Source: Mesoplasma florum L1
Lineage (GTDB): Bacteria; Bacillota_I; Bacilli_A; Mycoplasmatales; Mycoplasmataceae
NCBI RefSeq assembly: GCF_000008305.1
Contig: NC_006055.1
Coordinates: 1-32,000, forward strand
Reading direction: 5' to 3'
Length of the DNA stretch: 32,000 nt
Numbering within the stretch: position 1 is the stretch's first letter; each line of letters opens with the position of its first letter. Below, in pieces: positions 1 to 32,000 of this stretch. The translations under genes and the position numbers were made by a program. Under the pieces are notes generated by a model. It saw only the letters and a list, made by a program, of their open reading frames with translations. It was not told the origin of the DNA and searched no databases.

Positions 1-1332
1 ATGGAAACAAAAGCACTTTGAGAAAAATTAATTAATAAGTTAAAGAAGGAAAAATTAATAGATCAAGACATTATTGAAGAATATATTGTTACTTCAGAAT
101 TAATTAAAATTTCAAATACAGAGTTCGTAATCCTTGTTAGATCTAATCTTGGTGTAACTATTTTAAATGAATTTAAAGAAGTATTTGTGTACGAATTTAA
201 ATCAGTTTTAAACAGTTATGTGTCTGTTGATTTTTTAACTAAAGAAATTTTTGAGAAAAATACAAAAAAAGAGAATAAAAAAGAACCCATAAATACTGTT
301 TTATCTGAAAATGCACTTACTTTTGAGAATTTTATAGTTGGGTCAAGTAATAAACAAGCTAATTTAGCTGCTAAAAATGTTGTTGCAAACCCTGGTATGA
401 GTTTTAATCCTTTATTTATTTATGGAGATTCAGGACTGGGTAAAACACATTTATTACAAGCTATTAAAAATCAAGCAGAATTAAATGGAAAAAAAGTTTT
501 ATATTTAACATCTGAAGAATTTACAAAAAGAATTGTTAATGCTTTAAACAAAGGTGATTTAAGTGAAATAGAAGAATTAAAAACTGAGATAAATTCTAAT
601 GAATTCTTTATTTTAGATGATGTTCAATTTTTAAGTAAAAAAGATAAAACAAACGAGTTTTTCTTTAACATTATTAACAATTTTACTGAAAATGGTAAAC
701 AATTAGTTTTTTCTAGTGATAAAACTCCTGAATTGTTAAATGGTTTTGATAAAAGAATGATAACTAGATTTAATTCAGGTTTATCAACACCTATTAATGC
801 TTTAGATATTCCAACTGCCAAATTGATAATTGAAGCTGAAATTAAAAAACAAGGTTTAAAACAAAAAATTAAAGAAGATGCCGTTGTTTACTTAGCTCAA
901 AACTTTAGCGATGATGTTAGAAAAATTAAAGGTTTAGTTAATAGATTACTTTTCTTTGGTATTCAAAACGATTTAGGTCACATAATTGATTTGGAAGATG
1001 TTATTGACTTATTTAAAGATACACCTTCAGCTAATTTAGGATTATTAAATGTTAAAAAAATTAAAGAAGTTGTTGCTAAAAAATATGATGTTACTATAAA
1101 AGCCATCGATGGTAAAGCAAGAACAACTGCTATAAAAAATGCTAGACATCTTTCTATGTATTTTGCAAAAATAATTTTAAACCATACATCAACTCAAATT
1201 GGTGCAGAATTTGGTGGAAGAGATCATAGTACAGTTTTAAGTGCTATTTCGCGTATTGAAAAATTAATATATAAAGAAAAAGAATTCAAAAAAATAGTTG
1301 AGTCTTTAAAAAACGAAATAATAGGAAAATAG
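1..1332 (+). CDS. dnaA: Chromosomal replication initiator protein DnaA
   Basis: ATG at base 1. The frame is continuous with track ORF 187..1332 once TGA 19-21 is read as Trp. Walker A GDSGLGKTHLL, a DDVQF box and the C-terminal DnaA-box-binding region ARHLSMYF..GGRDHSTV are present. Stop is TAG 1330-1332. Confidence 0.96.
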
Positions 1333-1358
1333 ATGTAAATTCGCATCTATTTTTTTTG
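1330..1358 (+). terminator. Intrinsic terminator after dnaA
   Basis: Hairpin TAGATG-taaattcg-CATCTA followed by a run of 8 T. Confidence 0.6.
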
Positions 1359-1367
1359 TGTGGAAAA
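1359..1367 (-). promoter_or_regulatory. DnaA box (TGTGGAAAA, reverse complement TTTTCCACA)
   Basis: One mismatch to the TTATCCACA consensus. It lies in the dnaA-dnaN spacer, inverted relative to the box at 1429. Confidence 0.6.
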
Positions 1368-1428
1368 GAAATTAAACTTGTTGAATAAAAAGTCATTTAA
1401 ACCTTTATTTACCGTTGTTTTATGAGTG

Positions 1429-1437
1429 TTTTCCACA
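1429..1437 (+). promoter_or_regulatory. DnaA box (TTTTCCACA)
   Basis: Same 9-mer as 1359-1367 in the opposite orientation, 61 nt away. Confidence 0.6.
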
Positions 1438-1556
1438 TATCAACTGCATTATAAATATTACTTATATAAAGAATAATATAATATATAAAAGCATGCGTAT
1501 TTCTTTTGTTTTTATTTTATAAATATGAGATAATATATATTGTAAATAAGAGGTGT
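1438..1556. other. AT-rich tract, candidate DNA-unwinding element of oriC
   Basis: Almost pure A/T sequence (e.g. TATAAATATTACTTATATAAAGAATAATATAATATATAAAAG) directly next to the DnaA-box pair and upstream of dnaN. Confidence 0.4.
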
Positions 1557-1559
1557 TAT

Positions 1560-2681
1560 ATGAGATTAAGTATAAATAAATCAGTTCTATTAAATGAATT
1601 AACAAAGGCAAGTAAATTAATTGAACTTAAAAATGTTAACCCAGCATTACAAGGGGTTTATATGGAAGTTAGTTTTGATAAACTTGTTATAGTTTCATCA
1701 AACACGTCTACATCTTTTAAAGCTGAATTAAATAATGAAAACTCAGATTTAATCATAGAACAACCAGGACGTATATTAGTTAAACCTAAATTTATTTTAG
1801 AATTACTTAGAAAGTTAGACAGTGAGTTTGTAACACTTTCTACATTTGCTGAAAATGAATTAGAAATAATAACAGAAAAATCAAATTTAAAAGTTTCTAT
1901 ATTAAATGTAGAAGAATTCCCATTAATTGGTTTTGTTGAAAATGGTTTAGAATTATCTATTGATTCTCAAGAATTTAAAAGCACACTTACTCAAACTATT
2001 AGTTCAATTAATGAATGAAACCAAAAAGTTGTTTTAGCTGGAATGAATTTAAAAATAAAAGATAACAAAATATCATTTGTTACAACTGACTTATTTAGAG
2101 TTAGTTTAAAAGAAATCATTTTAAATGAAGCAACTAATCAGGAAGTAGATATTATTATTCCATACAAAACTTTAATAGAATTAAGAAACTTAATAGAAAA
2201 CGTTAAAGAATTTAAAATTATAATACATGATACTAATGCAACATTTAAATTAGATAATGATTTATTACAATCTACTTTAATTGATGGAAGATATCCAAAT
2301 GTTCATTCAGCATTCCCTACAACACATGAAATAAAATTAGAATTAAAAGCTAAAACATTATTAAAAGTTTTAAGTAGATTTGAATTAACAAACGATCAAA
2401 ACATTACTTCAGTTGTTAATTTAGAAATTCAACAAAGTGGAATTATATTAAAAACAACAATTGCTGAAACAGTTAAATATGAAGAAAAATTTACAGAATA
2501 TAAATATGAAGGTTCAAGTAATTTAAATATTAACTTTAATACAAAATATTTAATTGAAGCTATAAGAAGTTTTGATGATCAACTAATTCATTTAACTTTT
2601 AATTCTCAAAATAAACCTGTATTAATAACAGGAGCACAAAAAAGAGATTTGAAACAAGTAGTTTTACCAACTTATGCATAA
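1560..2681 (+). CDS. dnaN: DNA polymerase III beta subunit (sliding clamp)
   Basis: RBS AAGAGGTG lies 6 nt before ATG 1560. Track ORFs 1506..2018 and 2043..2681 share a frame and are joined through TGA 2016-2018. Length is 373 aa, and the position after dnaA is typical. The N-terminus MRLSINKSVLLNEL is clamp-like. Confidence 0.93.
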
Positions 2682-2682
2682 T

Positions 2683-2717
2683 AAAAAAATCAGGAAATTT
2701 CCTGATTTTATTTTTTT
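2683..2717. terminator. Bidirectional intrinsic terminator (dnaN convergent with the minus-strand gene)
   Basis: Palindrome ATCAGGA-aatt-TCCTGAT flanked by an A-run on the left and a T-run on the right, so it can serve both convergent genes. Confidence 0.7.
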
Positions 2718-3682
2718 GTATTATTAAACTTTAAAGAACCTTCAATATCTGAATATCCACGTTTTTTTGAAATAGTAACTGGGAAGTTAAAGAAATCTTC
2801 AAAGAAATCTTTAACACCACTTATACCAGCTAATTCACCAGTAACATATAATCCATTTTTAACAACACCACTTCTAACTAATGCTGAAGAATTTTCTAAA
2901 ACAGATGTTATTAAGCTTTTGTAGTTTGTAAAAGATTTAATGAAAATCTTTTTAAATTCTTCACTAACGCAAACAACACTTCTTCTTTCGTTAGTAATAA
3001 TATCTTTACCTACGATACTTAATTCTAATTCATCTCTTAATTTAATAATTGTTCCAAGTGATCATTTAATTTTTTCAATCATATCACTATCAACAGAAAT
3101 AGAATATTCTTCTTTAATAAATTGATTTAAAGAATCATCTAAAAATTTCTCAGCATAAATTGTTTCTTTTTCTTTAATTATTTTACCTTCAACAATTAAA
3201 GCAACTTTAGCGTAAGCTTGATTAATATCTAAAATTAATACTCCATATTCATCTTTAATATCTGCATTAGCACCTAAAGCAGAAAGTATTATTCTTGGAG
3301 AAAAAGAAATTGAAGCAAAGTTTGTATTCTCGCTAAATAAATTTTGGAAGAATTCTTGAATGAAGTCATTATCTGAGTTAGGACAAGATATAACAATTTT
3401 AGCTCCGTCAAATTCGTCTTTAAATCTTTCAACAAGAATTGTTACATATTGTTTAAAAATTTCTAAATCTTGAATAATGTACTTATCAAGAATATTAACA
3501 ACTTTTAAAGGATCATCTAGTCTACCAATAGTATTTTTAACATCACGACCATATAAAACAATTTCAGTTGTTAAAACGTTTCAACAAACTAAACTAAAGT
3601 CATCGTAAATTTTGCCTTTCTCAGATGAAATTATTCTTGTAAATTCTTCACCAAAAACTATTCCTATTTTTTTATCACTCAT
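2708..3682 (-). CDS. Actin-fold MreB-like protein with degenerate nucleotide-binding motifs (hypothetical)
   Basis: Hand translation on the minus strand runs from ATG (complement of 3680-3682, RBS GTGAGGA upstream) to TAA (complement of 2708-2710). This gives 975 nt, 324 aa and two TGA Trp codons. The track misses it because there is no internal ATG/GTG/TTG after the first TGA. The protein is collinear with the MreB layout: IGIVFGEEFT at the phosphate-1 position, GRDVKNTIGR resembling MreB G.DAK.M.GR, LILDINQAYAKVAL at phosphate-2, and LYVTGELAGISGVKDFF at the adenosine motif. Confidence 0.75.
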
Positions 3683-3716
3683 AATATTCCTCACTTTTCT
3701 CACATTAATTATAGTA

Positions 3717-3722
3717 TATAAT
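3717..3722 (+). promoter_or_regulatory. Candidate -10 box (TATAAT) for rnmV-rsmA
   Basis: TATAAT lies about 28 nt upstream of the rnmV start, in the divergent intergenic region. No convincing -35 was found. Confidence 0.3.
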
Positions 3723-3750
3723 AAACTTAATGTTAGATATAGGTGAATTA

Positions 3751-4278
3751 ATGGCAAATGAAATAATTATTGTTGAAGGTAAATCAGATTCACAAAAATT
3801 AAAGAAAATTTATGGCGAAAATTTAATAACATTCGAAACAAATGGACTAGGAATTGATGATAAAAAATTAAATTCCATAAAAGAATTAAGTAAAAAAAAT
3901 AAAATTATAATTTTTACAGATCCAGACGGACCAGGTAAAAAAATTAGAGAAACAATAATTGAATTTTTAGATGTTGATGTTTTTAATGCATTTGTTTCAA
4001 AGCAAGATATTGATAAAAATTCTAAAAAAATAGGTTTAGCTGAAGCAAGTGAAGAAGCTATTAAAAAAGCTTTAGATAATTTAATTACATATAATAAAAA
4101 AAATATTTCAATTTCTTGAGATGAATATGTTAAAAATGATTTTTACATAAAAGCAAACAGAATTATAATTGCTAATCATTTTAATTTGAGTGAAGATATG
4201 AGTTCAAAGAGTTTATTCAAATGATTAAATTGAATGAATTTAAAAGTTAAAGATATAGAAAAAATAATAGGTGAGTAG
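3751..4278 (+). CDS. rnmV: Ribonuclease M5 (Toprim domain, 5S rRNA maturase)
   Basis: RBS AGGTGA lies 4 nt before ATG 3751. Toprim motifs IIIVEGKSDSQKL and IIIFTDPDGPGKKIR are present. The frame continues through TGA at 4117, 4222 and 4231 to TAG 4276-4278, giving 175 aa. Confidence 0.88.
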
Positions 4279-4279
4279 A

Positions 4280-5083
4280 ATGAAAGTTGAAGCAAAGAAA
4301 AAATTTGGTCAAAACTTTATTAGTGATCAAAATTTAATTAATAAGATAGTTTCAATATTAGGTAATGATAAAGATCAACTAATTATAGAAATTGGTCCAG
4401 GAACAGGAGCACTAACTAAATTACTTGCACAAAAATATAACAAAGTAGTAGCAATAGAAATTGATACTGACATGGAGCCTATTTTAAAAAAAGAAATAAC
4501 AAATGACAATTTCGAATTATTTCTTTCAGATGTGTTATTAGTTGATTTTGAAAAATTAATAAAAGAAAAAAGACAACATGAAAATCAAAAAGTTTCAATA
4601 ATTTCTAACATGCCTTACTATATAACAAGTGAAATACTTTTTAGAACATTAAATGTAAGTGATAAGTTAACAAAAGCTGTTTTTATGATGCAAAAAGAAG
4701 TTGCTATTAGAGTGTGTTCATATAAAGGCGAAAATAATTACAATAATCTTTCAGTTGCTTGTGAATTTTATGCAGATAAAAAATATGAGTTTACAGTTCC
4801 TAAACATATGTTCTACCCAGTACCGAAAGTGGATTCTGCAATAATATCATTAACATTCAACAATAAATACACTGAACAAATTAAAGACAAAGATAAATTC
4901 TTAACATTTTTAAGAAAAATATTTAATAACAGAAGAAAAACAATATTGAATAATTTATCAAATGTAACTAATGACAAAACAAAAGCTAATGAAATCCTTG
5001 ATAATCTTAATATTGATAAATCATTAAGACCTGAAGTAGTTGGTTTAGAAGACTTTATTAGAATTTACAACAAAACTAGATAA
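4280..5083 (+). CDS. rsmA: 16S rRNA (adenine1518/1519-N6)-dimethyltransferase
   Basis: RBS AGGTGA precedes ATG 4280. Motifs: KKKFGQNF, SAM-binding IIEIGPGTGALT, and NMPYYITS. Length is 267 aa. Confidence 0.93.
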   Translation: MKVEAKKKFGQNFISDQNLINKIVSILGNDKDQLIIEIGPGTGALTKLLAQKYNKVVAIEIDTDMEPILKKEITNDNFELFLSDVLLVDFEKLIKEKRQHENQKVSIISNMPYYITSEILFRTLNVSDKLTKAVFMMQKEVAIRVCSYKGENNYNNLSVACEFYADKKYEFTVPKHMFYPVPKVDSAIISLTFNNKYTEQIKDKDKFLTFLRKIFNNRRKTILNNLSNVTNDKTKANEILDNLNIDKSLRPEVVGLEDFIRIYNKTR

Positions 5084-5095
5084 TATTTTGTAATT

Positions 5096-5127
5096 AAAAG
5101 TGGCTTCTTGCTACTTTTTTAATTTTT
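5096..5127 (+). terminator. Intrinsic terminator after rsmA
   Basis: Stem AAAAGTGGC / GCTACTTTT (one G-U pair), loop TTCTT, followed by T-rich TTTTAATTTTT. Confidence 0.6.
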
Positions 5128-5301
5128 ATTTGTGCTAAAAACTTGAAATAAAGCAATTTAAGGGCATTTTTTAAGCATTTTATTAAAAATCAGTACTTTT
5201 TATGGGTTTTAACTCCATTGCCTGTTTTTATAGTAAAAATGGCTTAATTAATATATAATATATATTAAGGAAACTTAGAAAGAAACGGGTGAACAAATTA
5301 T

Positions 5302-7209
<1,908 letters not shown>

Positions 7210-25790: not shown

Positions 25791-25860
25791 TTAAATGTTA
25801 AAATTATTAAGATATTGTTTTAACATTTTATAAATTTTTAAGGAAAGAATAGGGATAATA

Positions 25861-27675
25861 ATGGCTAATAACAAAAAAAACACAAACACAAATACTTGAT
25901 CAAAAGCCACAAATACAAAGGCTGTTAATGCTCAAAAAGCTAATCAAGTTAAAAATGAATCAGCACATAATAAAGAAATAGTTGATAAATATAAAGAAGC
26001 TATCAATTCAACAAATAAAAACTCTAAACAACCAACTAAAAAAGTTGTTGAACCAAAAACTTCAACAGTTGTAGCAAATTCAAATACAAAAAAACCTTTA
26101 TCAAAAAGTGAAGAAAAATTAATTAATAAGATAAATGAAAAAGAATTAATAAAGCAAAAGATTGCTGAAGATAAAAAATTGAAAAAACAAAATAAAGCAG
26201 AAGCTAAAAGGATTTATCAAGAACAAATTAAACAAGAAAAAAACAGAATTTTATTGGAAAAACAAGAAAAAGATCTAAAACAAATACAAGAAGCGGAAGC
26301 AAAGGCCAAAAAAATGGAAGCTGAAAGAATAGCAGACGCTAAAAAATTAGCTCTTGAAGAAAAAGCGGCGAAGCAAGCAGAAAAAGCTCAAGCTAAAAAA
26401 ATGGAAGCTGAAAGAATAGCTTTAGAGAAAAAAGCTGCTGCAGAAAAAGCGAAAGCAGAAAAGCAAGCAGAAGCTGAAAGAATAGCAGCCGCTAAAAAAT
26501 TAGCTCTTGAAGAAAAAGAAAGAGAAAAATTAATTGAAGCTCAAAAATTAATTGAAGAGAAAAAAGCTGCAGAAAATGCTAAGAAAATTGAAGATGAAAA
26601 AATTCAAAAAGAATTAAAAACAAAAGCAGAATTTGAAGCAAAACAAAAAGAAACAGAAAATAAAAAAATAGCAAAAGAAGAGAGAACAAACATGGGACAA
26701 ACTCAAACTGAAAAAACACCTAAAGTAGGTAAAAATTCAAAAACTTCTGAAGCTAGAGAAATTCAAGTTTTTGAACCAACAGCAGAATCTGAAGCAAAAC
26801 GTGAATTTATTGAAATTGATCCTAAAACAAACTTTGATAAAGGTGTTAAAGGTTTAAAACAAAAAAATAAATATCAAAAACAGTTAACAAGCAAATATTC
26901 TAAAGATATTTTAAGTGAAGGTACTATTGTTACAACAACAAACTGTAAACCAAATACTTTAGAACATATTATTGAATTAAAAGATGTTAGAAAATCATAT
27001 ATTACAGGGGACTTAGAAACACCTATTTTAAAAGGTATTGATGTCAAATTAGATAAAGGTGATTTCATCGTTATCTTAGGACCATCAGGTTCTGGAAAAA
27101 CAACCTTCTTAAACGTTATCTCTGGATTAGATAAAGCAACTGAGGGTGATGTATTCATTTTAGGTTCAAACTTATCTTTATTAAAAGATTCACATTTAAC
27201 AAAATTTAGAAGAAGAAATGTAGGATTTATTTTCCAACAATATAACTTATTAACAAATTTAACTTCAAAAGAAAATGCTGAAGTTGGACAAAACCTTGCG
27301 AATAAAAATAAACAAGGAATGAGCATTGAAGAAATTTTTGAAACAATTGGAATGAAAGAACAAATGAATAAGTACCCTCATCAAATGTCAGGGGGGCAAC
27401 AACAAAGGGTTTCTATTGCTAGAGCTTTAGCTAAAAATCCTGAAATATTGTTTGCCGATGAGCCAACAGGTGCGTTAGATGAAGAAATGGGACGTAAAGT
27501 TTTAGAAATTTTAGTAAAAGTTAACCGTGAGCAAAAAACAACAGTTGTTGTAGTTACTCATAACCCTAACATTGCAAAAATAGCTAATACTGTAATTCAT
27601 ATTAAAAACGGATTAATTGACAGTTTAGAAAAAAACTCAAAACCTGCTGATCCAAAAACTATTGAATGATCATAA
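25861..27675 (+). CDS. ABC transporter ATP-binding protein (MacB/LolD/FtsE-like ATPase) with a long N-terminal Lys/Glu/Ala-rich extension
   Basis: ATG 25861 (RBS AAGGAAAG/AGGGA upstream) is in frame with track ORF 26179..27669, with one TGA at 25897. Walker A GPSGSGKTT, Q-loop FIFQQYNLL, signature MSGGQQQRVSIARAL and Walker B ILFADEPTGALD are present. The frame reads through TGA 27667 to TAA 27673-27675, giving 604 aa. The ABC domain starts near 26968. Confidence 0.88.
26308..26518 (+). repeat. In-frame near-identical DNA repeats inside the ABC ATPase N-terminal extension
   Basis: AAAAAAATGGAAGCTGAAAGAATAGC occurs at 26308 and 26395, 87 nt apart. GAAGCTGAAAGAATAGCAG(A/C)CGCTAAAAAATTAGCTCTTGAAGAAAAAG occurs at 26317 and 26470, 153 nt apart. 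Both spacings are multiples of 3. Confidence 0.85.
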
Positions 27676-27730: not shown

Positions 27731-27766
27731 TAAAATATTATATAAAAAGAAAGATGTTGAAATAAA

Positions 27767-29887
27767 ATGAAAAAACTATTATTAACACTATCATCTGTAC
27801 TTATAGTTGGAGGAGCCGCTGGTTCTGTTATTTCATGTGGTGTAAAGCCAGAAAAAGAAGTTGTCTTTGCCTTAATTGGTGGGTCAACAATGAGTGATAA
27901 TGACTTAGAAAAACTTAATGCATATAAAGAAATGGCTGATGAATTTAATAAAACACATTCCCAAGAAAATGGATTTGCTCCCATCAAGGTTGTCTGAAGA
28001 GATTCTAATTATCTTAATAATTCAGTTCTTTCTGGGGATAATTTACCTGACTTATATATATCTTATGTGGATGCTGCGTCAACATATCTTGAATCTACAG
28101 TTGCTGATCAAGTAAGAGATATGGAAGATTCTATGGGTGAAGAAGGTTTTACAAAGTTTACAAATGATTTAATAACACCAGCATTTATTAATGAGGGTAA
28201 ATATAAAGATACTCAAGTTGTTTTACCATTTGGTAAATCATTTGATATATCAGTTATTAATGTAAATTTATTGTTTGAATTTATGGGGCTATTTAAAAAT
28301 GCTGGAGTTGAAAAAAAACTAGAAGAGCTTAAAACAACATATGAAGCCTATAATATAAAAAGATCTGATGTTCTTGAGCAACAAACTGAAATGTCAGGAA
28401 CAAAAGTGTTTAAGGATAATTTAAAAATAGTAGGCTCAAACAATAATGAAATAAAATCAACAGAAAATGAAATTGTTTTAGAGGAAAGTAACTACAATTA
28501 TTTAATAAATCTTTTTACTAATGTGGAAAATAGTATTGAAGGTATTAAATCCATTTTTGCATCAACTGATAATGTTTTAGAATTGACAAAAGCAATGAAT
28601 CAAATAATTCAAAGTGATGGTTTAGATGTAACTATTAAAATTGATAATAATCAGTATGTAAAACCAAAAGAAAGATATAATTTTGCCTTTGGAATCGATT
28701 CTCTTGATAATAAATACTACATGGATTATGCATCAACTGATACTGGAACTGAAATTATTGATATTCAAAACAGTGAAGATTTTTGATATAAAGCAACTTA
28801 TGAAAATAAAAAAGCCAATATTGAATTGAATTCTAAATCTAAAAGCTTTAAGGATACATCAAAATACCTACAAGGTATGAAAGAAATTGCATTAAGCAAT
28901 AAAGGCCAAGAAAATAAGCTGACTTACTCTGAACAATGAAATGGAGTTTTCTCGACATCAAGATATGAACAGAATTCTCAGTCTAGAACATATATAACGC
29001 AAGATTTTACAAAAGGGACTATGTTTATGGGCGGTGCATCATCAGCAAATGATTTTTACTTTACTTCATCATGAACAAAAAAAGTAGATGTTTATAGGTC
29101 TCAAGAAACTTCGTCGGCAATAGCACAAGAAAATAAGAATGTAACTTACACGCCTGTTACTAGAGCAGATATTATAACAACATCCAAAACAAATGAGTCA
29201 AATCCACAAAAAGCTGTGTTTATGTCTCAAGGGAGAGGAATAGCTGGTTTTAAATCTAATGGTAGTAATGCTGCTCAAAAAGAAGAAAGTGTAAAAGGAT
29301 TTTTAAATTATATTATGCAGCCAATTCCTTCAGCAAGGTTTGCATTAAGAACAAGTTACATGCCAGCAACAAAATCAGGCATGTTAGTCTATGAAAATTA
29401 TTTAAATGGAAATTTCAATAATGCAAATGGAGAGCCTCAAAATCAAACAGAATTAGAAAAAGCAGTAAAAGAAATAGAACAAACGTATAATGGTAATGAA
29501 AAAATAACAGATTCAGAAATTAAGGAATTGGTTCCAAAATATTTTTATCAAATAATGACTAATGGTAAACCTGAATGAAAAGCCGGCATTAGTCCAGTTA
29601 ATACAGGATTTATAAATGATTATTTGAATCCAAAAATAGAAGATAATGATCCAAATATTAGTTTAGTTTCGTCAAAAGCAAATCCAGTGACTGATATAGT
29701 TAGAAGCGGTATTAAAAATTCAATAAATGGAACAAATACAATTATGGATTTAGCCAAAAAACCTAACATGAGTTTTTATGATTTATTAAGTGAAGCAAAA
29801 GATCCTAAAGACCCATCATATTTAACTTACTGATTAAGAAGAAATCAGGGTGATTTTTATCAAGAAATAAATATTAATCATAAATAA
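27767..29887 (+). CDS. Large surface lipoprotein with a solute-binding-protein-like (family 1 SBP) N-terminal region
   Basis: Signal peptide plus lipobox: MKKLLLTLSSVLIVGGAAGSVIS-C. SBP-like features: VVFALIGGS...LNAYKEMADEFNKTH and SGDNLPDLY. Five track fragments (27767, 28067, 29216, 29624 and the tail) share a frame, and I read the gaps by hand and found only TGA. Stop is TAA 29885-29887, giving 706 aa. Confidence 0.8.
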
Positions 29888-29918: not shown

Positions 29919-29946
29919 TTGAATTTTTAAATTGTATATTTATATA
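29919..29946 (+). promoter_or_regulatory. Candidate promoter of riboswitch cassette 1
   Basis: Two alternatives: TTGAAT (29919-29924) with a 16-nt spacer to TATATA (29941-29946), or TG-TATATT at 29933-29940. I cannot say from sequence which -10 is used. Confidence 0.4.
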
Positions 29947-29964
29947 GCAACTGAATATTAAGAA

Positions 29965-30090
29965 ACTTATACAGGGTAGCATAATGGGCTACTGACCCCG
30001 CCATGAAACCTATTTCATGACTATAGGTCTTTATAAACACTTTAATTAAAGTTTCTTTCAACATCAAAACTTGAAAGAAACTTTTTATTT
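29965..30090 (+). promoter_or_regulatory. Purine-riboswitch-family aptamer (guanine/2'-deoxyguanosine class) plus intrinsic-terminator expression platform, copy 1
   Basis: P1: CUUAUA (29966-71) pairs with UAUAGG (30022-27). P2: GUAGC-AUAAUGG-GCUAC. J2/3: UGACCCCGCC. P3: CAUGAAA-CCUA-UUUCAUG. A C sits at the specificity position in GA-C-UAUA. The terminator is AAAGTTTCTTTCAA (30048-61) / TTGAAAGAAACTTT (30071-84) followed by a T-run. The downstream gene starts at 30126. Confidence 0.85.
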
Positions 30091-30125
30091 AGTTGAATTT
30101 TTAATAAAAAGAAAGGAAAAACATA

Positions 30126-30965
30126 ATGAAAAAATTAATAGCAATTTTAGGGGCAGTTGGATTAACTGCTACAGGTTCAGCAAGTTTATTAGTTTCTTGC
30201 TCAACACCAGTTGAAAAAGATTTTTCTTCTGAAATAGGCAAAATGGTAAAAGATTACATAAAAATTGATCAGGGAACTATATATGAAGATTCAAATGAAA
30301 TTTATACAAAATTGAAATCGTTTAATAAAGAAATGGAATCTGAAATTTTAAAATTAAAAAATGTAGATGGAGTTTCAAAGTTTAATGAAAAAGAAGGAAC
30401 ATTTTCTGATCCTGATTCAAGCATTAAACCATCAAGCGCAGATGCGGTATGATTTCATTCAGTTTACACATCATCAAGTGTAAGCGAATTCTCAAATAAT
30501 AATGATTTTAATAAGTGAACAATTACTATTCAATACAGAACACCAGCAACTAATAAAACAACTGGTGAATTATATTGAGGAAAATATAATAAAACTTACA
30601 TAAATGATATTGAATTTTTTAAAGCTAAAAAACCTAATGCGATATTAAAAAACTCAGATGGAACAGAGCAATCAGAAAATTCTTTTACTCTTGTAGATAA
30701 TGAAGTAAAGATTAGAGTAGATAAAGGTTATAATAGAGAAAACATAATTCTTAATGGAAATGAAAAAATTACGGATATAAATATTTCACTTGATACTCAA
30801 TTATTTGAAGAACCTGAAATAAAATTAGGCAATGATAAATTCCCAACATATTTTGATTTAACACTTAAATTAAAACAGGGACAAACATTATCAGTAGACC
30901 AAAAAATATTTATTAAATTACCATCATTTCAAGATATTAAACTAATAATTAAAGCACAAAATTAA
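30126..30965 (+). CDS. Lipoprotein of unknown function (riboswitch cassette 1)
   Basis: RBS AAAGGA precedes ATG 30126. Signal peptide plus lipobox: MKKLIAILGAVGLTATGSASLLVS-C. I checked the frame codon by codon through TGA at 30450, 30516 and 30576 to TAA 30963-30965, giving 279 aa. I recognise no family. Confidence 0.85.
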
Positions 30966-30971
30966 TAACAG

Positions 30972-30980
30972 TGATATAAT
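30972..30980 (+). promoter_or_regulatory. Extended -10 promoter (TGaTATAAT) of riboswitch cassette 2
   Basis: TG at 30972-73 and TATAAT at 30975-80, starting 7 nt after the stop of the preceding lipoprotein gene and 24 nt before P1 of aptamer 2. Confidence 0.55.
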
Positions 30981-31004
30981 TTTGTTAACAACTTAATATG
31001 AAAA

Positions 31005-31104
31005 ACTTATACAGGGTAGCATATTGGGCTACTGTTCCGCCTCAAGACCAATCTTGAGACTATAAGTGTAAAGGTTTTTTGGTTATCAAAAAACCTTTTT
31101 TATT
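31005..31104 (+). promoter_or_regulatory. Purine-riboswitch-family aptamer plus intrinsic-terminator expression platform, copy 2 (variant J2/3)
   Basis: P1: ACUUAUA (31005-11) pairs perfectly with UAUAAGU (31061-67). P2: GUAGC-AUAUUGG-GCUAC. J2/3: UGUUCCGCC. P3: CUCAAGA-CCAA-UCUUGAG, which is fully compensatory relative to copy 1. The terminator is a perfect 12-bp stem AAAGGTTTTTTG (31070-81) / CAAAAAACCTTT (31087-98) followed by TTTTATT. Confidence 0.85.
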
Positions 31105-31148
31105 ATCTAAAGTTTTTCTTTAGGTTGTATTCAAAATTAGGGGGAAAT

Positions 31149-31826
31149 ATGAAAAAATTATTAGCAATTTTAGGAGCAGTTGGATTATCAGTAACAGGAG
31201 CTTCAATAGTAGTTTCTTGTGGTGGTAATGGTAATACTGATATTACAGATCCTGAAACAGGCTTAGTTGCATTATCAAAAATAAAAAATTTAACTTTAGA
31301 TTTAGGGGAAATTGGAGAAAACAGTTCGCTGAATATATCTAAAGCTTTTTTTGAAAAAAATGAATCTGTATTAAAAAAAGCTGTTGGAGATACATTAACT
31401 GCAAATATGTTTTATGTTTCAAAAATAACTTCAACTTCAGCAACAATTACAGGTAAAAATACTAACCAGGAATTATTAAGTCCATCTGCAGATTTTGCAG
31501 TAACAGTTAGTTTTACATCAGAAAGCGATGGAAGAATAGACTTAGCAAAATTAGAAGGTCTAGTTACAAGTAATTTAATTGTTAATAAAACAAAGTATCA
31601 AGGAACAGGAAATTATGACAAATCAAATGCTATTGCAGATGCATTAATAGAAGCAAATAAAGAACTACTAAAAGAAACAGTAGCAAAAGATTTTTATTTA
31701 TTAAAGTCTGATCTTGTTGAACCGTCAGACGGCAAACCTGGTGTAGCAAAATTAGAAGGTAGCACATCAAGTTTAAAAGTAAAAAGTGGTTCACCAGTAG
31801 AAATAACATTTACACTAAGCGAATAA
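31149..31826 (+). CDS. Lipoprotein of unknown function (riboswitch cassette 2)
   Basis: RBS AGGGGA precedes ATG 31149, which is internal to track ORF 31125..31826. Signal peptide plus lipobox: MKKLLAILGAVGLSVTGASIVVS-C. Length is 225 aa with no TGA. Confidence 0.85.
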   Translation: MKKLLAILGAVGLSVTGASIVVSCGGNGNTDITDPETGLVALSKIKNLTLDLGEIGENSSLNISKAFFEKNESVLKKAVGDTLTANMFYVSKITSTSATITGKNTNQELLSPSADFAVTVSFTSESDGRIDLAKLEGLVTSNLIVNKTKYQGTGNYDKSNAIADALIEANKELLKETVAKDFYLLKSDLVEPSDGKPGVAKLEGSTSSLKVKSGSPVEITFTLSE

Positions 31827-31831
31827 AACAA

Positions 31832-31858
31832 AAAATAGACATTGGTCTATTTTCTTTG
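31832..31858 (+). terminator. Intrinsic terminator after the cassette 2 lipoprotein
   Basis: AAAATAGAC-attg-GTCTATTTT followed by CTTTG. Confidence 0.6.
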
Positions 31859-31947
31859 TGACTCTTATTTAATTTGTATATATAATAATATCACAAAAAT
31901 TAACACTTAACATTGTATTTAGTTTTTATAAAAAATAAATAATATAT

Positions 31948-31953
31948 TATAAT
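31948..31953 (+). promoter_or_regulatory. Candidate -10 box (TATAAT) of riboswitch cassette 3
   Basis: TATAAT lies 22 nt upstream of the third ACTTATA P1-like leader, matching the spacing in cassette 2. Confidence 0.45.
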
Positions 31954-31975
31954 ATCTTTAACTTAATAAAAATTA

Positions 31976-32000
31976 ACTTATACATGATAACATATCGGGT
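31976..32000 (+). promoter_or_regulatory. 5' part of a third purine-riboswitch-like aptamer (truncated by the window end)
   Basis: ACTTATACATGATAACATATCGGGT shares the P1 5' strand ACUUAUAC and the upstream leader AACTTAATA..AACTTATACA with copies 1 and 2. The rest lies outside the window. Confidence 0.5.

Follow-up and report, generated by a model that had tools for sequence, protein, structure and literature searches.

The first 32,000 nucleotides of the Mesoplasma florum L1 chromosome (contig NC_006055.1, the window below) begin at base 1 with dnaA, followed by dnaN, gyrB, and gyrA. The G+C content of the stretch is 27%, and TGA is read as a sense codon; open reading frames (ORFs) were called under genetic code 4 (table 4). 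This report concerns the end of the window, from position 29,919 onward, where three consecutive promoter-aptamer units belong to the 2'-dG-I class of 2'-deoxyguanosine (2'-dG) riboswitches. Published coordinates for L1 place mfl019 at 25860-27675, mfl020 at 27766-29887, mfl021 at 30125-30965, mfl022 at 31148-31826, and the start of mfl023 at 32115 (Matteau et al. 2020, PMC7745072, Datasets EV1 and EV3). All window features described here lie on the forward (+) strand unless stated otherwise. Unit 1 precedes the ORF of mfl021 (30126-30965), which encodes a 279-aa lipoprotein, and unit 2 precedes that of mfl022 (31149-31826), a 225-aa lipoprotein with two repeats of about 85 aa. Unit 3 heads the operon mfl023-027 and is cut by the window end; its downstream DNA was taken from locus L003 of a second M. 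florum strain (CP023735.1), which was found via the exact mfl022 protein and shares 99.6% identity with the window across 10.8 kb.

Aptamer 1 (29965-30028) matches Rfam family RF01510 over the full model (1-63) with 87.4 bits (E = 3.7e-18), against a gathering score of 51 bits. Its P1 pairs 29965-29971 with 30022-30028, P2 pairs 29975-29980 with 29988-29993, and P3 pairs 30002-30008 with 30013-30019, while J2/3 (GACCCCGC) occupies 29994-30001. Aptamer 2 (31005-31067), also a full-model hit, scores 85.6 bits (E = 1.1e-17); its P1 is 31005-31011/31061-31067, its P2 31015-31020/31028-31033, its P3 31041-31047/31052-31058, and its J2/3 (GUUCCGC) 31034-31040. The window holds the first 25 nt of aptamer 3 (31976-32000), worth 23.3 bits as a truncated hit, and the complete aptamer in the second strain (L003 10828-10890) scores 81.3 bits. 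The scores of all three complete aptamers exceed the gathering score, which answers the covariance-model check that an earlier note on this DNA, made from the letters alone, had proposed. The observations behind that note were also borne out, among them the 7-bp P3 hairpins with P1-closing strands, the repeated string at 29965 and 31005, and a third leader copy that runs off the window.

The repeated string is identical over 30 nt (29965-29994 and 31005-31034, 0 mismatches), and none of 100 dinucleotide-preserving shuffles matched even with up to 3 mismatches allowed. Moreover, when 18 aptamers from eight Mesoplasma species were aligned, 96.6% of cells were paired and both partners had changed in 9 of 20 pairs; none of 500 shuffles reached the value of this alignment, and slid controls were 32-42% paired. 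These results bear on the idea that the repeats are chance similarity or decayed riboswitch relics. Decay does occur in the genus, since a deletion has removed the terminator of one homologous M. tabanidae cassette. Nevertheless, zero chance matches are expected, the full-length covariance-model hits have E = 1e-17, the terminators are intact, the start sites are mapped, and covariation is present, and so we regard this idea as effectively refuted.

The array itself is not new: it is already in the literature and covered by RF01510. The M. florum 2'-dG riboswitches were reportedly discovered by Kim, Roth, and Breaker in 2007, who reportedly called only "one variant type" highly selective for 2'-dG. 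The elements of the window may correspond to the types I-B, II-A, and II-B of that study. McCown (2017) counted four 2'-dG-I examples, all in M. florum, and the array is three of these four published L1 riboswitches; together with the leader of nrdF (mfl530), which has a 188-nt 5' untranslated region (UTR), the window units account for all of them. Also, the transcription-unit map of Matteau et al. (2020, PMC7745072) marks both leader terminators as riboswitch terminators. What is added here is the genus-wide distribution and regulon, a link between mfl022 and endonuclease I, a leader-tail helix, and the C58U change in aptamer 3.

The nrdF riboswitch, known as I-A (dGsw/mfl), is the closest known system. 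The window units share its Rfam family, aptamer 1 has the same core (CAG, GACCCCGC, GAC) and, like aptamer 2, the same P/A/T/H layout, and both the published I-A template and its M. grammopterae ortholog have the AAAGAAACUU leader and the UAUUUAGUUG tail. However, the genes behind the window units encode surface lipoproteins and an importer, not ribonucleotide reductase, their P3 sequences differ from that of I-A, and aptamers 2 and 3 have a 7-nt J2/3. I-A binds 2'-dG with a KD of about 190 nM, and the core criteria for its class are C at the U22-, U51-, and C74-equivalent positions, the latter two being C58 and C80 of I-A (PMC6847200). Aptamers 1 and 2 carry C, C, C at these positions. Aptamer 3 carries C, U, C (alignment columns 8, 35, and 57), with U at the C58 position. 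The pyrimidine at C58 of I-A, or U51 of xpt, is reported to set selectivity between nucleobase and nucleoside (PMC6847200), and 2'-dG selectivity therefore cannot be assumed for aptamer 3 and is uncertain. The P2 of aptamer 3 has also been rewritten through compensatory changes (GAUAAC/GUUGUC), and the orthologs in four other species retain the canonical sequence.

One or more of the aptamers, and especially the third, might sense guanine or another purine, which would make the array multi-ligand. Besides the U at column 35, the J2/3 segments of the three aptamers differ in both length and sequence (GACCCCGC, GUUCCGC, and GACCUGC). We nevertheless consider a multi-ligand array rather unlikely: 2dG-I is the best-scoring family within the purine clan for all three aptamers (81-87 bits), C is kept at the U22- and C74-equivalents in each of them, and column 35 is C in the orthologous aptamers that stand before the same operon in M. 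coleopterae, M. tabanidae, M. entomophilum, and M. chauliocola.

Each unit has its own promoter. Published mapping by rapid amplification of cDNA 5' ends (5'-RACE) gives starts at G29947 for promoter 1 (-10 box TATATT, 29935-29940), A30987 for promoter 2 (TATAAT, 30975-30980), and A31960 for promoter 3 (TATAAT, 31948-31953) (Matteau 2020, Dataset EV1). The promoters were taken from these data, as a simple consensus promoter scan returned sites no more commonly than in shuffles. From the end of the -10 box to the aptamer there are 25 nt in units 1 and 2 and 23 nt in unit 3, within the spacing of about 20-25 nt given in the earlier note. That note had also pointed to similar leaders between the -10 box and P1. 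They form a three-copy direct repeat of leader plus aptamer start (at 29949, 30989, and 31960) and, given the mapped start sites, make up the 5'-terminal 16-18 nt of the three mRNAs.

Strong terminators follow the first two aptamers. Expression platform 1 (30048-30095) has a perfect 14-bp stem (30048-30061/30071-30084) followed by TTTTTATTT, a U-tract at 30082-30090, and the tail UAUUUAGUUG at 30086-30095. Expression platform 2 (31070-31128) consists of a 13-bp hairpin (31070-31098) followed by TTTTATTAT, with a U-tract at 31099-31104 and the element AAAGUUUUUCUUUAGGUUGU at 31109-31128. The published list has these terminators at 30050-30081 (-9.7 kcal/mol) and 31072-31095 (-8.1 kcal/mol), each labelled as a riboswitch terminator (Matteau 2020, PMC7745072). 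The 18-nt leaders upstream are complementary to these platforms. Leader 1 (29947-29964) contains CAACUGAAUA (29948-29957) and the start of AAGAAACUU (29960-29968), which extends into P1 and is the exact complement of AAGUUUCUU (30049-30057) within the 5' strand of terminator 1. Leader 2 (30987-31004) contains ACAACUUAA (30988-30996) and the start of GAAAAACUU (31000-31008), which likewise extends into P1 and has as an alternative partner the 5' strand of terminator 2, AGGUUUUUU (31072-31080; duplex -8.4 kcal/mol).

In the published P/A/T/H model of I-A, the antiterminator forms by P-T pairing and the terminator by T-H pairing, and ligand turns the switch OFF (Helmling 2018; Kim 2017). Units 1 and 2 fit this design, in that the terminator 5' strand can pair with the P1 5' strand plus the leader. 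Judging from these complementarities and from the analogy with I-A, units 1 and 2 are probably transcriptional OFF switches built like the nrd riboswitch, and their 5' leaders probably serve as the antiterminator strand. Without ligand, the leader and the P1 5' strand would pair with the terminator 5' strand, and RNA polymerase would read through. When 2'-dG is bound, P1 would be held closed, the terminator hairpin would form, and transcription would stop before the lipoprotein gene. The published transcription-unit maps give both terminated and read-through units, obtained without varying the ligand (Matteau 2020, PMC7745072).

The same leaders can also pair beyond the terminators. In unit 1, CAACUGAAUA is complementary to the post-terminator tail UAUUUAGUUG; the duplex has an RNAduplex energy of -15.4 to -16.1 kcal/mol against a shuffle mean of -7.0, with 0 of 200 shuffles as good, and the minimum free energy (MFE) fold of the full 5' UTR includes the leader helix (z = -4.46). 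In unit 2, ACAACUUAA and GAAAAACUU are both complementary to the post-terminator element, and AAAGUUUUUCUUUAGGUUGU is complementary to the entire leader. Here RNAduplex gives -19.0 kcal/mol against a shuffle mean of -8.9 (again 0 of 200 shuffles as good), the duplex dominates the MFE fold of the full 5' UTR (z = -4.76), and an RNAalifold consensus of 5 orthologous leaders backs the pairing. Moreover, in a swap test over 22 cassettes every leader type had its best partner among the downstream regions of that type, most clearly so for the divergent M. chauliocola leader (cognate -16.2, non-cognate mean -6.4). The same tail is present in the M. grammopterae I-A ortholog and in the published I-A template.

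Since the decision to terminate precedes transcription of the tail, we infer that the pairing of the leader with the conserved element past the terminator would lock the read-through mRNA in its ON fold and bury its 5' end. Read-through mRNA might thereby be stabilized, with terminated transcripts keeping a free 5' end for RNase J. The inverted repeat of leader and tail was also considered as a mobile module resembling a miniature inverted-repeat transposable element (MITE). We rejected this as the principal explanation: every copy sits in a 5' UTR and in sense orientation, and the repeat starts at the transcription start. In M. tabanidae, a unit 1-like cassette (L010 7148-7271) retains the leader-complementary tail after clean deletion of the terminator hairpin, and it may be constitutively ON.

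Unit 3 is built differently. Its leader (31960-31975) and aptamer start, together 31960-32000, are the head of TU_023, a published unit that spans 31959-40085, carries the five genes mfl023-027 behind a 156-nt 5' UTR, and has no leader terminator in the published list (Matteau 2020, PMC7745072). A search of the leader for a terminator or a helix sequestering the Shine-Dalgarno sequence turned up no more than an AU hairpin of 5-6 bp and some GU-rich pairings. A conserved helix does join the leader and P1 5' strand to a downstream segment, UUAAGUUGCUUCUUUUAUUAAGU, and competes with P1. Both the ligand and the output of unit 3 are therefore uncertain, given the U at the C58 position and the lack of a convincing terminator. 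The picture in the earlier note of an array of cassettes, each with an aptamer, a terminator, and a single lipoprotein gene, accordingly stands for units 1 and 2, but unit 3 departs from it in having no convincing terminator and a five-gene ATP-binding cassette (ABC) operon.

The first gene of that operon, mfl023, encodes a 692-aa binding-protein-like lipoprotein, a 41%-identical paralog of mfl020. Its family label in UniRef and NCBIfam is PBP type 2, P80- or P68-like. The scores against NCBIfam NF045826 (lipo_P68), 56.6 bits for mfl023 and 32.1 bits for mfl020, fall below the cut-off of 200 bits, so the two are relatives of the P68/P80 family and not members. The operon ATPase is of the MalK/UgpC type with a large insertion and has ABC_tran and TOBE_2 domains, and the two permeases have a BPD_transp_1 domain each. 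The last product, mfl027, is a lipoprotein with a metallo-beta-lactamase (MBL) fold (Lactamase_B), whose nearest named relatives are the MBL domains of ComEC/Rec2 and the pneumococcal phosphorylcholine esterase Pce/CbpE. Lipoboxes ending in SC occur in mfl020, mfl023, and mfl027. One published unit thus holds a lipoprotein resembling a substrate-binding protein (SBP), an ABC ATPase, two permeases, and a surface lipoprotein resembling a phosphodiesterase, and the operon is conserved across seven Mesoplasma species.

The small lipoproteins are harder to place. The ORF of mfl021 contains TGA codons for Trp and a lipobox, LLVSC; with the NCBIfam LP_plasma signal-peptide model, mfl021 (...SLLVSC) scores 34.2 bits and mfl022 (...SIVVSC) 36.9 bits, above the cut-off of 24 bits. 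Their assignment as lipoproteins in the earlier note is thus upheld, as is its remark that their mature sequences are unrelated. Over their first 50 nt (30126-30175 and 31149-31198), which code for the signal peptide, the two genes are 88% identical, which suggests that a duplicated module spans from promoter through signal peptide. Expression of mfl021 has been seen by RNA-seq and mass spectrometry (Matteau 2020, PMC7745072). A word-indexed search of a large database found mfl021 homologs in M. florum only; a lipoprotein of M. tabanidae, also directly behind a 2dG-I aptamer, is 32% identical to it. An AlphaFold model of P0001, which is 98% identical to mfl021, has a pLDDT of 39, too poor for a fold search.

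For mfl022 and its 85-aa repeat, profile searches of Pfam, NCBIfam, and PDB found nothing past the signal peptide, and the AlphaFold model, from a 3-sequence alignment, was likewise too poor for a fold search (pLDDT 38). An exhaustive HMMER search of the mature protein against 1.84 billion representatives returned two matches only, its ortholog and a protein designated P0030. The latter is an endonuclease I lipoprotein, as is the product of M. coleopterae L007 5775-6911 (Pfam Endonuclease_1, E = 2e-26 and 4e-34), and both carry the mfl022 repeats at the N terminus (35% identity, E = 1e-8 to 1e-9). Otherwise, the mfl022 domain was found only N-terminally in Mollicute endonuclease I lipoproteins. 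Each of these two endonuclease I lipoproteins is directly preceded by a 2dG-I aptamer. The idea in the earlier note that the lipoproteins handle nucleosides or nucleic acids thus gains indirect support for mfl022, through its endonuclease I relatives, and for mfl023-027, but none for mfl021.

The class was found in eight further named Mesoplasma species and one metagenome-derived contig. A genome-collection scan with the exact 30-mer matched only M. grammopterae, and the other species were found via protein look-ups; two scans of JGI metagenome contigs for the aptamer core gave no copies. M. coleopterae has 6 hits within 14 kb, M. tabanidae 4, and M. entomophilum and a second M. florum lineage (CP022512) 3 each; there are 2 each in M. 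melaleucae, in M. grammopterae, and on a Logan (SRA-run assembly) contig, L015, and 1 each in M. chauliocola and M. corruscae. In six species (M. florum, M. coleopterae, M. tabanidae, M. entomophilum, M. chauliocola, and M. corruscae), the mfl023-type operon comes directly after an aptamer. Aptamers before endonuclease I lipoproteins occur in two lineages, M. coleopterae and the metagenome-derived contig, and the M. grammopterae aptamers precede nrdF-I-E and an ABC system of the PhnD/P37 type. Further cargos are several small lipoprotein families and, at lower scores, DUF1904-dus-lysS. In the M. grammopterae ABC locus (L002 5783-7973), an aptamer of 79.8 bits is followed by a PhnD/P37-like lipoprotein (Phosphonate-bd, E = 5.6e-13), an ATPase, and an 871-aa permease; the switch thus also stands before an ABC importer of a second kind.

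Several observations from these arrays stand on their own. The lower-scoring hits before DUF1904-dus-lysS follow an MBL gene in M. tabanidae (L010 17979-18041, 71 bits) and in M. coleopterae (L007 18939-19000, 64 bits). The former has U at the C74/C80-equivalent (GAUUGUAAGA), and by the logic of purine riboswitches its ligand could be of the adenine type, possibly 2'-deoxyadenosine (2'-dA). A few kb downstream of the M. tabanidae 2dG-I array, an ordinary purine riboswitch (RF00167, 46.7 bits; L010 21058-21154) precedes a phosphoribosyltransferase and a xanthine/uracil permease. Genes resembling those of insertion sequences (IS; HTH_38/rve) lie inside the riboswitch-lipoprotein array of the same species (L010 5984-6949 and 9162-9653). 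Finally, in the second M. florum lineage another lipoprotein family stands behind the unit 1 riboswitch instead of mfl021 (CP022512, L009 5125-5796). This family, of 164-188 aa, is common to M. coleopterae, M. entomophilum, and M. tabanidae, so that a cargo has been replaced within one species.

Such replacements raise the possibility that the riboswitches are real and that mfl021, mfl022, and their counterparts are fast-evolving surface lipoproteins with a locally recombined module and no role in acquiring nucleosides or DNA. Both proteins are near-orphans, no domain or confident structure was found for the small lipoproteins, the cargo differs by strain and species with the same gene family behind different leader types, the 88%-identical signal-peptide starts were apparently duplicated with the module, and the M. 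tabanidae array contains IS-like genes. Nevertheless, the module is intact in eight other named species, with covarying stems and matched terminators. The cargos that are not orphans are consistently related to DNA or deoxynucleotides (ribonucleotide reductase, endonuclease I, MBL phosphodiesterase, and ABC importers), and the sole known relatives of mfl022 are endonuclease I lipoproteins. On balance, we judge a purely variable lipoprotein locus to be a possible but minority explanation.

The recurrence of ribonucleotide reductase, endonuclease I, MBL phosphodiesterase-like proteins, and ABC importers instead points to one theme, the supply of deoxynucleotides. The units and the nrd riboswitch would together form a deoxynucleoside-supply regulon, in which plentiful cytoplasmic 2'-dG would shut off both ribonucleotide reductase and the surface machinery for degrading and importing DNA. 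The gene content suggests a 2'-dG-repressed system for scavenging extracellular DNA.

Two independent parallels, the 2'-dG-II riboswitches and the Mycoplasma P80 operons, support this reading. The 2'-dG-II riboswitches, metagenomic and from Bacteroidetes (Weinberg 2017), are associated with ComEC and endonuclease I (PMC8872408, PMC6847200). Like 2'-dG-I, they are a purine scaffold retuned to 2'-dG, and their gene associations parallel mfl027 and the Mesoplasma endonuclease I lipoproteins; however, they have a core of U22, C51, and C74 with other J2/3 changes, come from another phylum, and form a separate Rfam family. The Bacillus subtilis xpt-pbuX guanine riboswitch shares the three-way junction, the loop-loop architecture, the terminator OFF switch, and the association with salvage and transport genes, whereas the M. 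florum elements have C in place of U22 and U51, a shorter L2 and L3, and a nucleoside ligand instead of guanine.

A conserved operon of the Mycoplasma hominis group brings together genes for a P80 lipoprotein, a surface nuclease, and an ABC transporter of the sugar type, and it has been proposed to import nucleic acid precursors (Cacciotto 2013). Such P80 operons (M. agalactiae MAG_5030-5070 and the M. hyopneumoniae mhp379 locus) resemble mfl023-027 in combining a lipoprotein like a sugar SBP, a nuclease or phosphodiesterase lipoprotein, an ATPase, and two permeases. Unlike their staphylococcal-nuclease-fold enzyme, mfl027 has an MBL fold (ComEC/Pce-like) and is the last gene in the operon, and the SBP similarity of mfl023 to the P68 model is weak and below the cut-off. 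We know of no description of riboswitch control for the Mycoplasma P80 operons.

Uptake of deoxymononucleotides was reported for M. mycoides in the 1980s, and the gene was never assigned (Breuer 2019). The mfl023-027 family is a candidate for this activity. A more detailed proposal would be that mfl023-027 and its P80-type Mollicute relatives import products of DNA breakdown (deoxynucleosides, deoxynucleoside monophosphates, or short oligodeoxynucleotides, freed by surface endonuclease I or MBL enzymes), that proteins of the mfl022 type are DNA-handling accessory modules, and that leader-tail pairing is a second regulatory layer. As a joint claim, we hold this to be doubtful and put it forward tentatively.

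With more confidence, at a probability of roughly 0.8, we propose that the region comprises three transcription units with their own sigma-70-type promoters and 2'-dG-I aptamers, that units 1 and 2 are OFF switches, and that all three belong, with the nrd riboswitch, to a putative deoxynucleoside-supply regulon. Several points weigh against this interpretation. All of the genes are well expressed in rich medium (681-5505 fragments per kilobase per million, FPKM), and the proteins are detected (Matteau 2020, PMC7745072), so that in this medium the switches can be no more than partly OFF. Aptamer 3 departs from the core at the C58 position, as described above, and the fold of the unit 3 UTR is no more stable than those of shuffles (z = -1.19). 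In the leader-tail helix, few changes within families are strictly compensatory, and for this reason its role is advanced here as a hypothesis. For mfl021, there is no informative homolog, domain, or confident structure, and searches with Pfam, NCBIfam, and PDB profiles gave nothing past the signal peptide. Also, the cargo behind a given leader type has been swapped between strains and species, which fits fast-evolving surface proteins as well as dedicated salvage factors. Lastly, the transporter parts are most like sugar or glycerol-3-phosphate systems, and the nearest solved SBPs to that of the operon are of the sugar and UgpB types, with weak E-values.

The surroundings of the array hold some further features. 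A weak terminator at the end of mfl022 is formed by an inverted repeat at 31836-31849 (published at 31835-31849, -3.6 kcal/mol; Matteau 2020). Between it and promoter 3 lies a published antisense start at 31877 on the reverse (-) strand, with a -10 box TATTAT at 31885-31890, aimed into mfl022. In the same interval, AACATTGTATTTAGTT (31909-31924) resembles the unit 1 terminator tail (30079-30094) and may be a relic expression platform upstream of promoter 3. Upstream of the array, mfl019 (25861-27675) encodes an ABC ATPase with a repetitive N terminus of about 330 aa rich in Lys, Glu, and Ala, and mfl020 (27767-29887) is transcribed from a promoter of its own without a riboswitch. Two permeases still follow the mfl020 orthologs of M. 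chauliocola and M. melaleucae, and the mfl019-mfl020 pair of M. florum therefore looks like the remnant of a second transporter.

The rediscovery of 2'-dG-I riboswitches adds nothing by itself. The wider comparison shows that the class is not confined to one organism, contrary to reviews, and three of the four known 2'-dG-I switches sit before genes for surface proteins. Comparison across species also turns the question of what "hypothetical lipoproteins" do into a testable hypothesis. On the tentative proposal that mfl023-027 imports products of DNA breakdown, the ligand of the riboswitch would identify the function of the operon, and the operon would supply the gene for deoxymononucleotide uptake. 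A scavenging system of this kind would matter for the nucleotide economy of near-minimal cells and for whole-cell models of Mollicutes.

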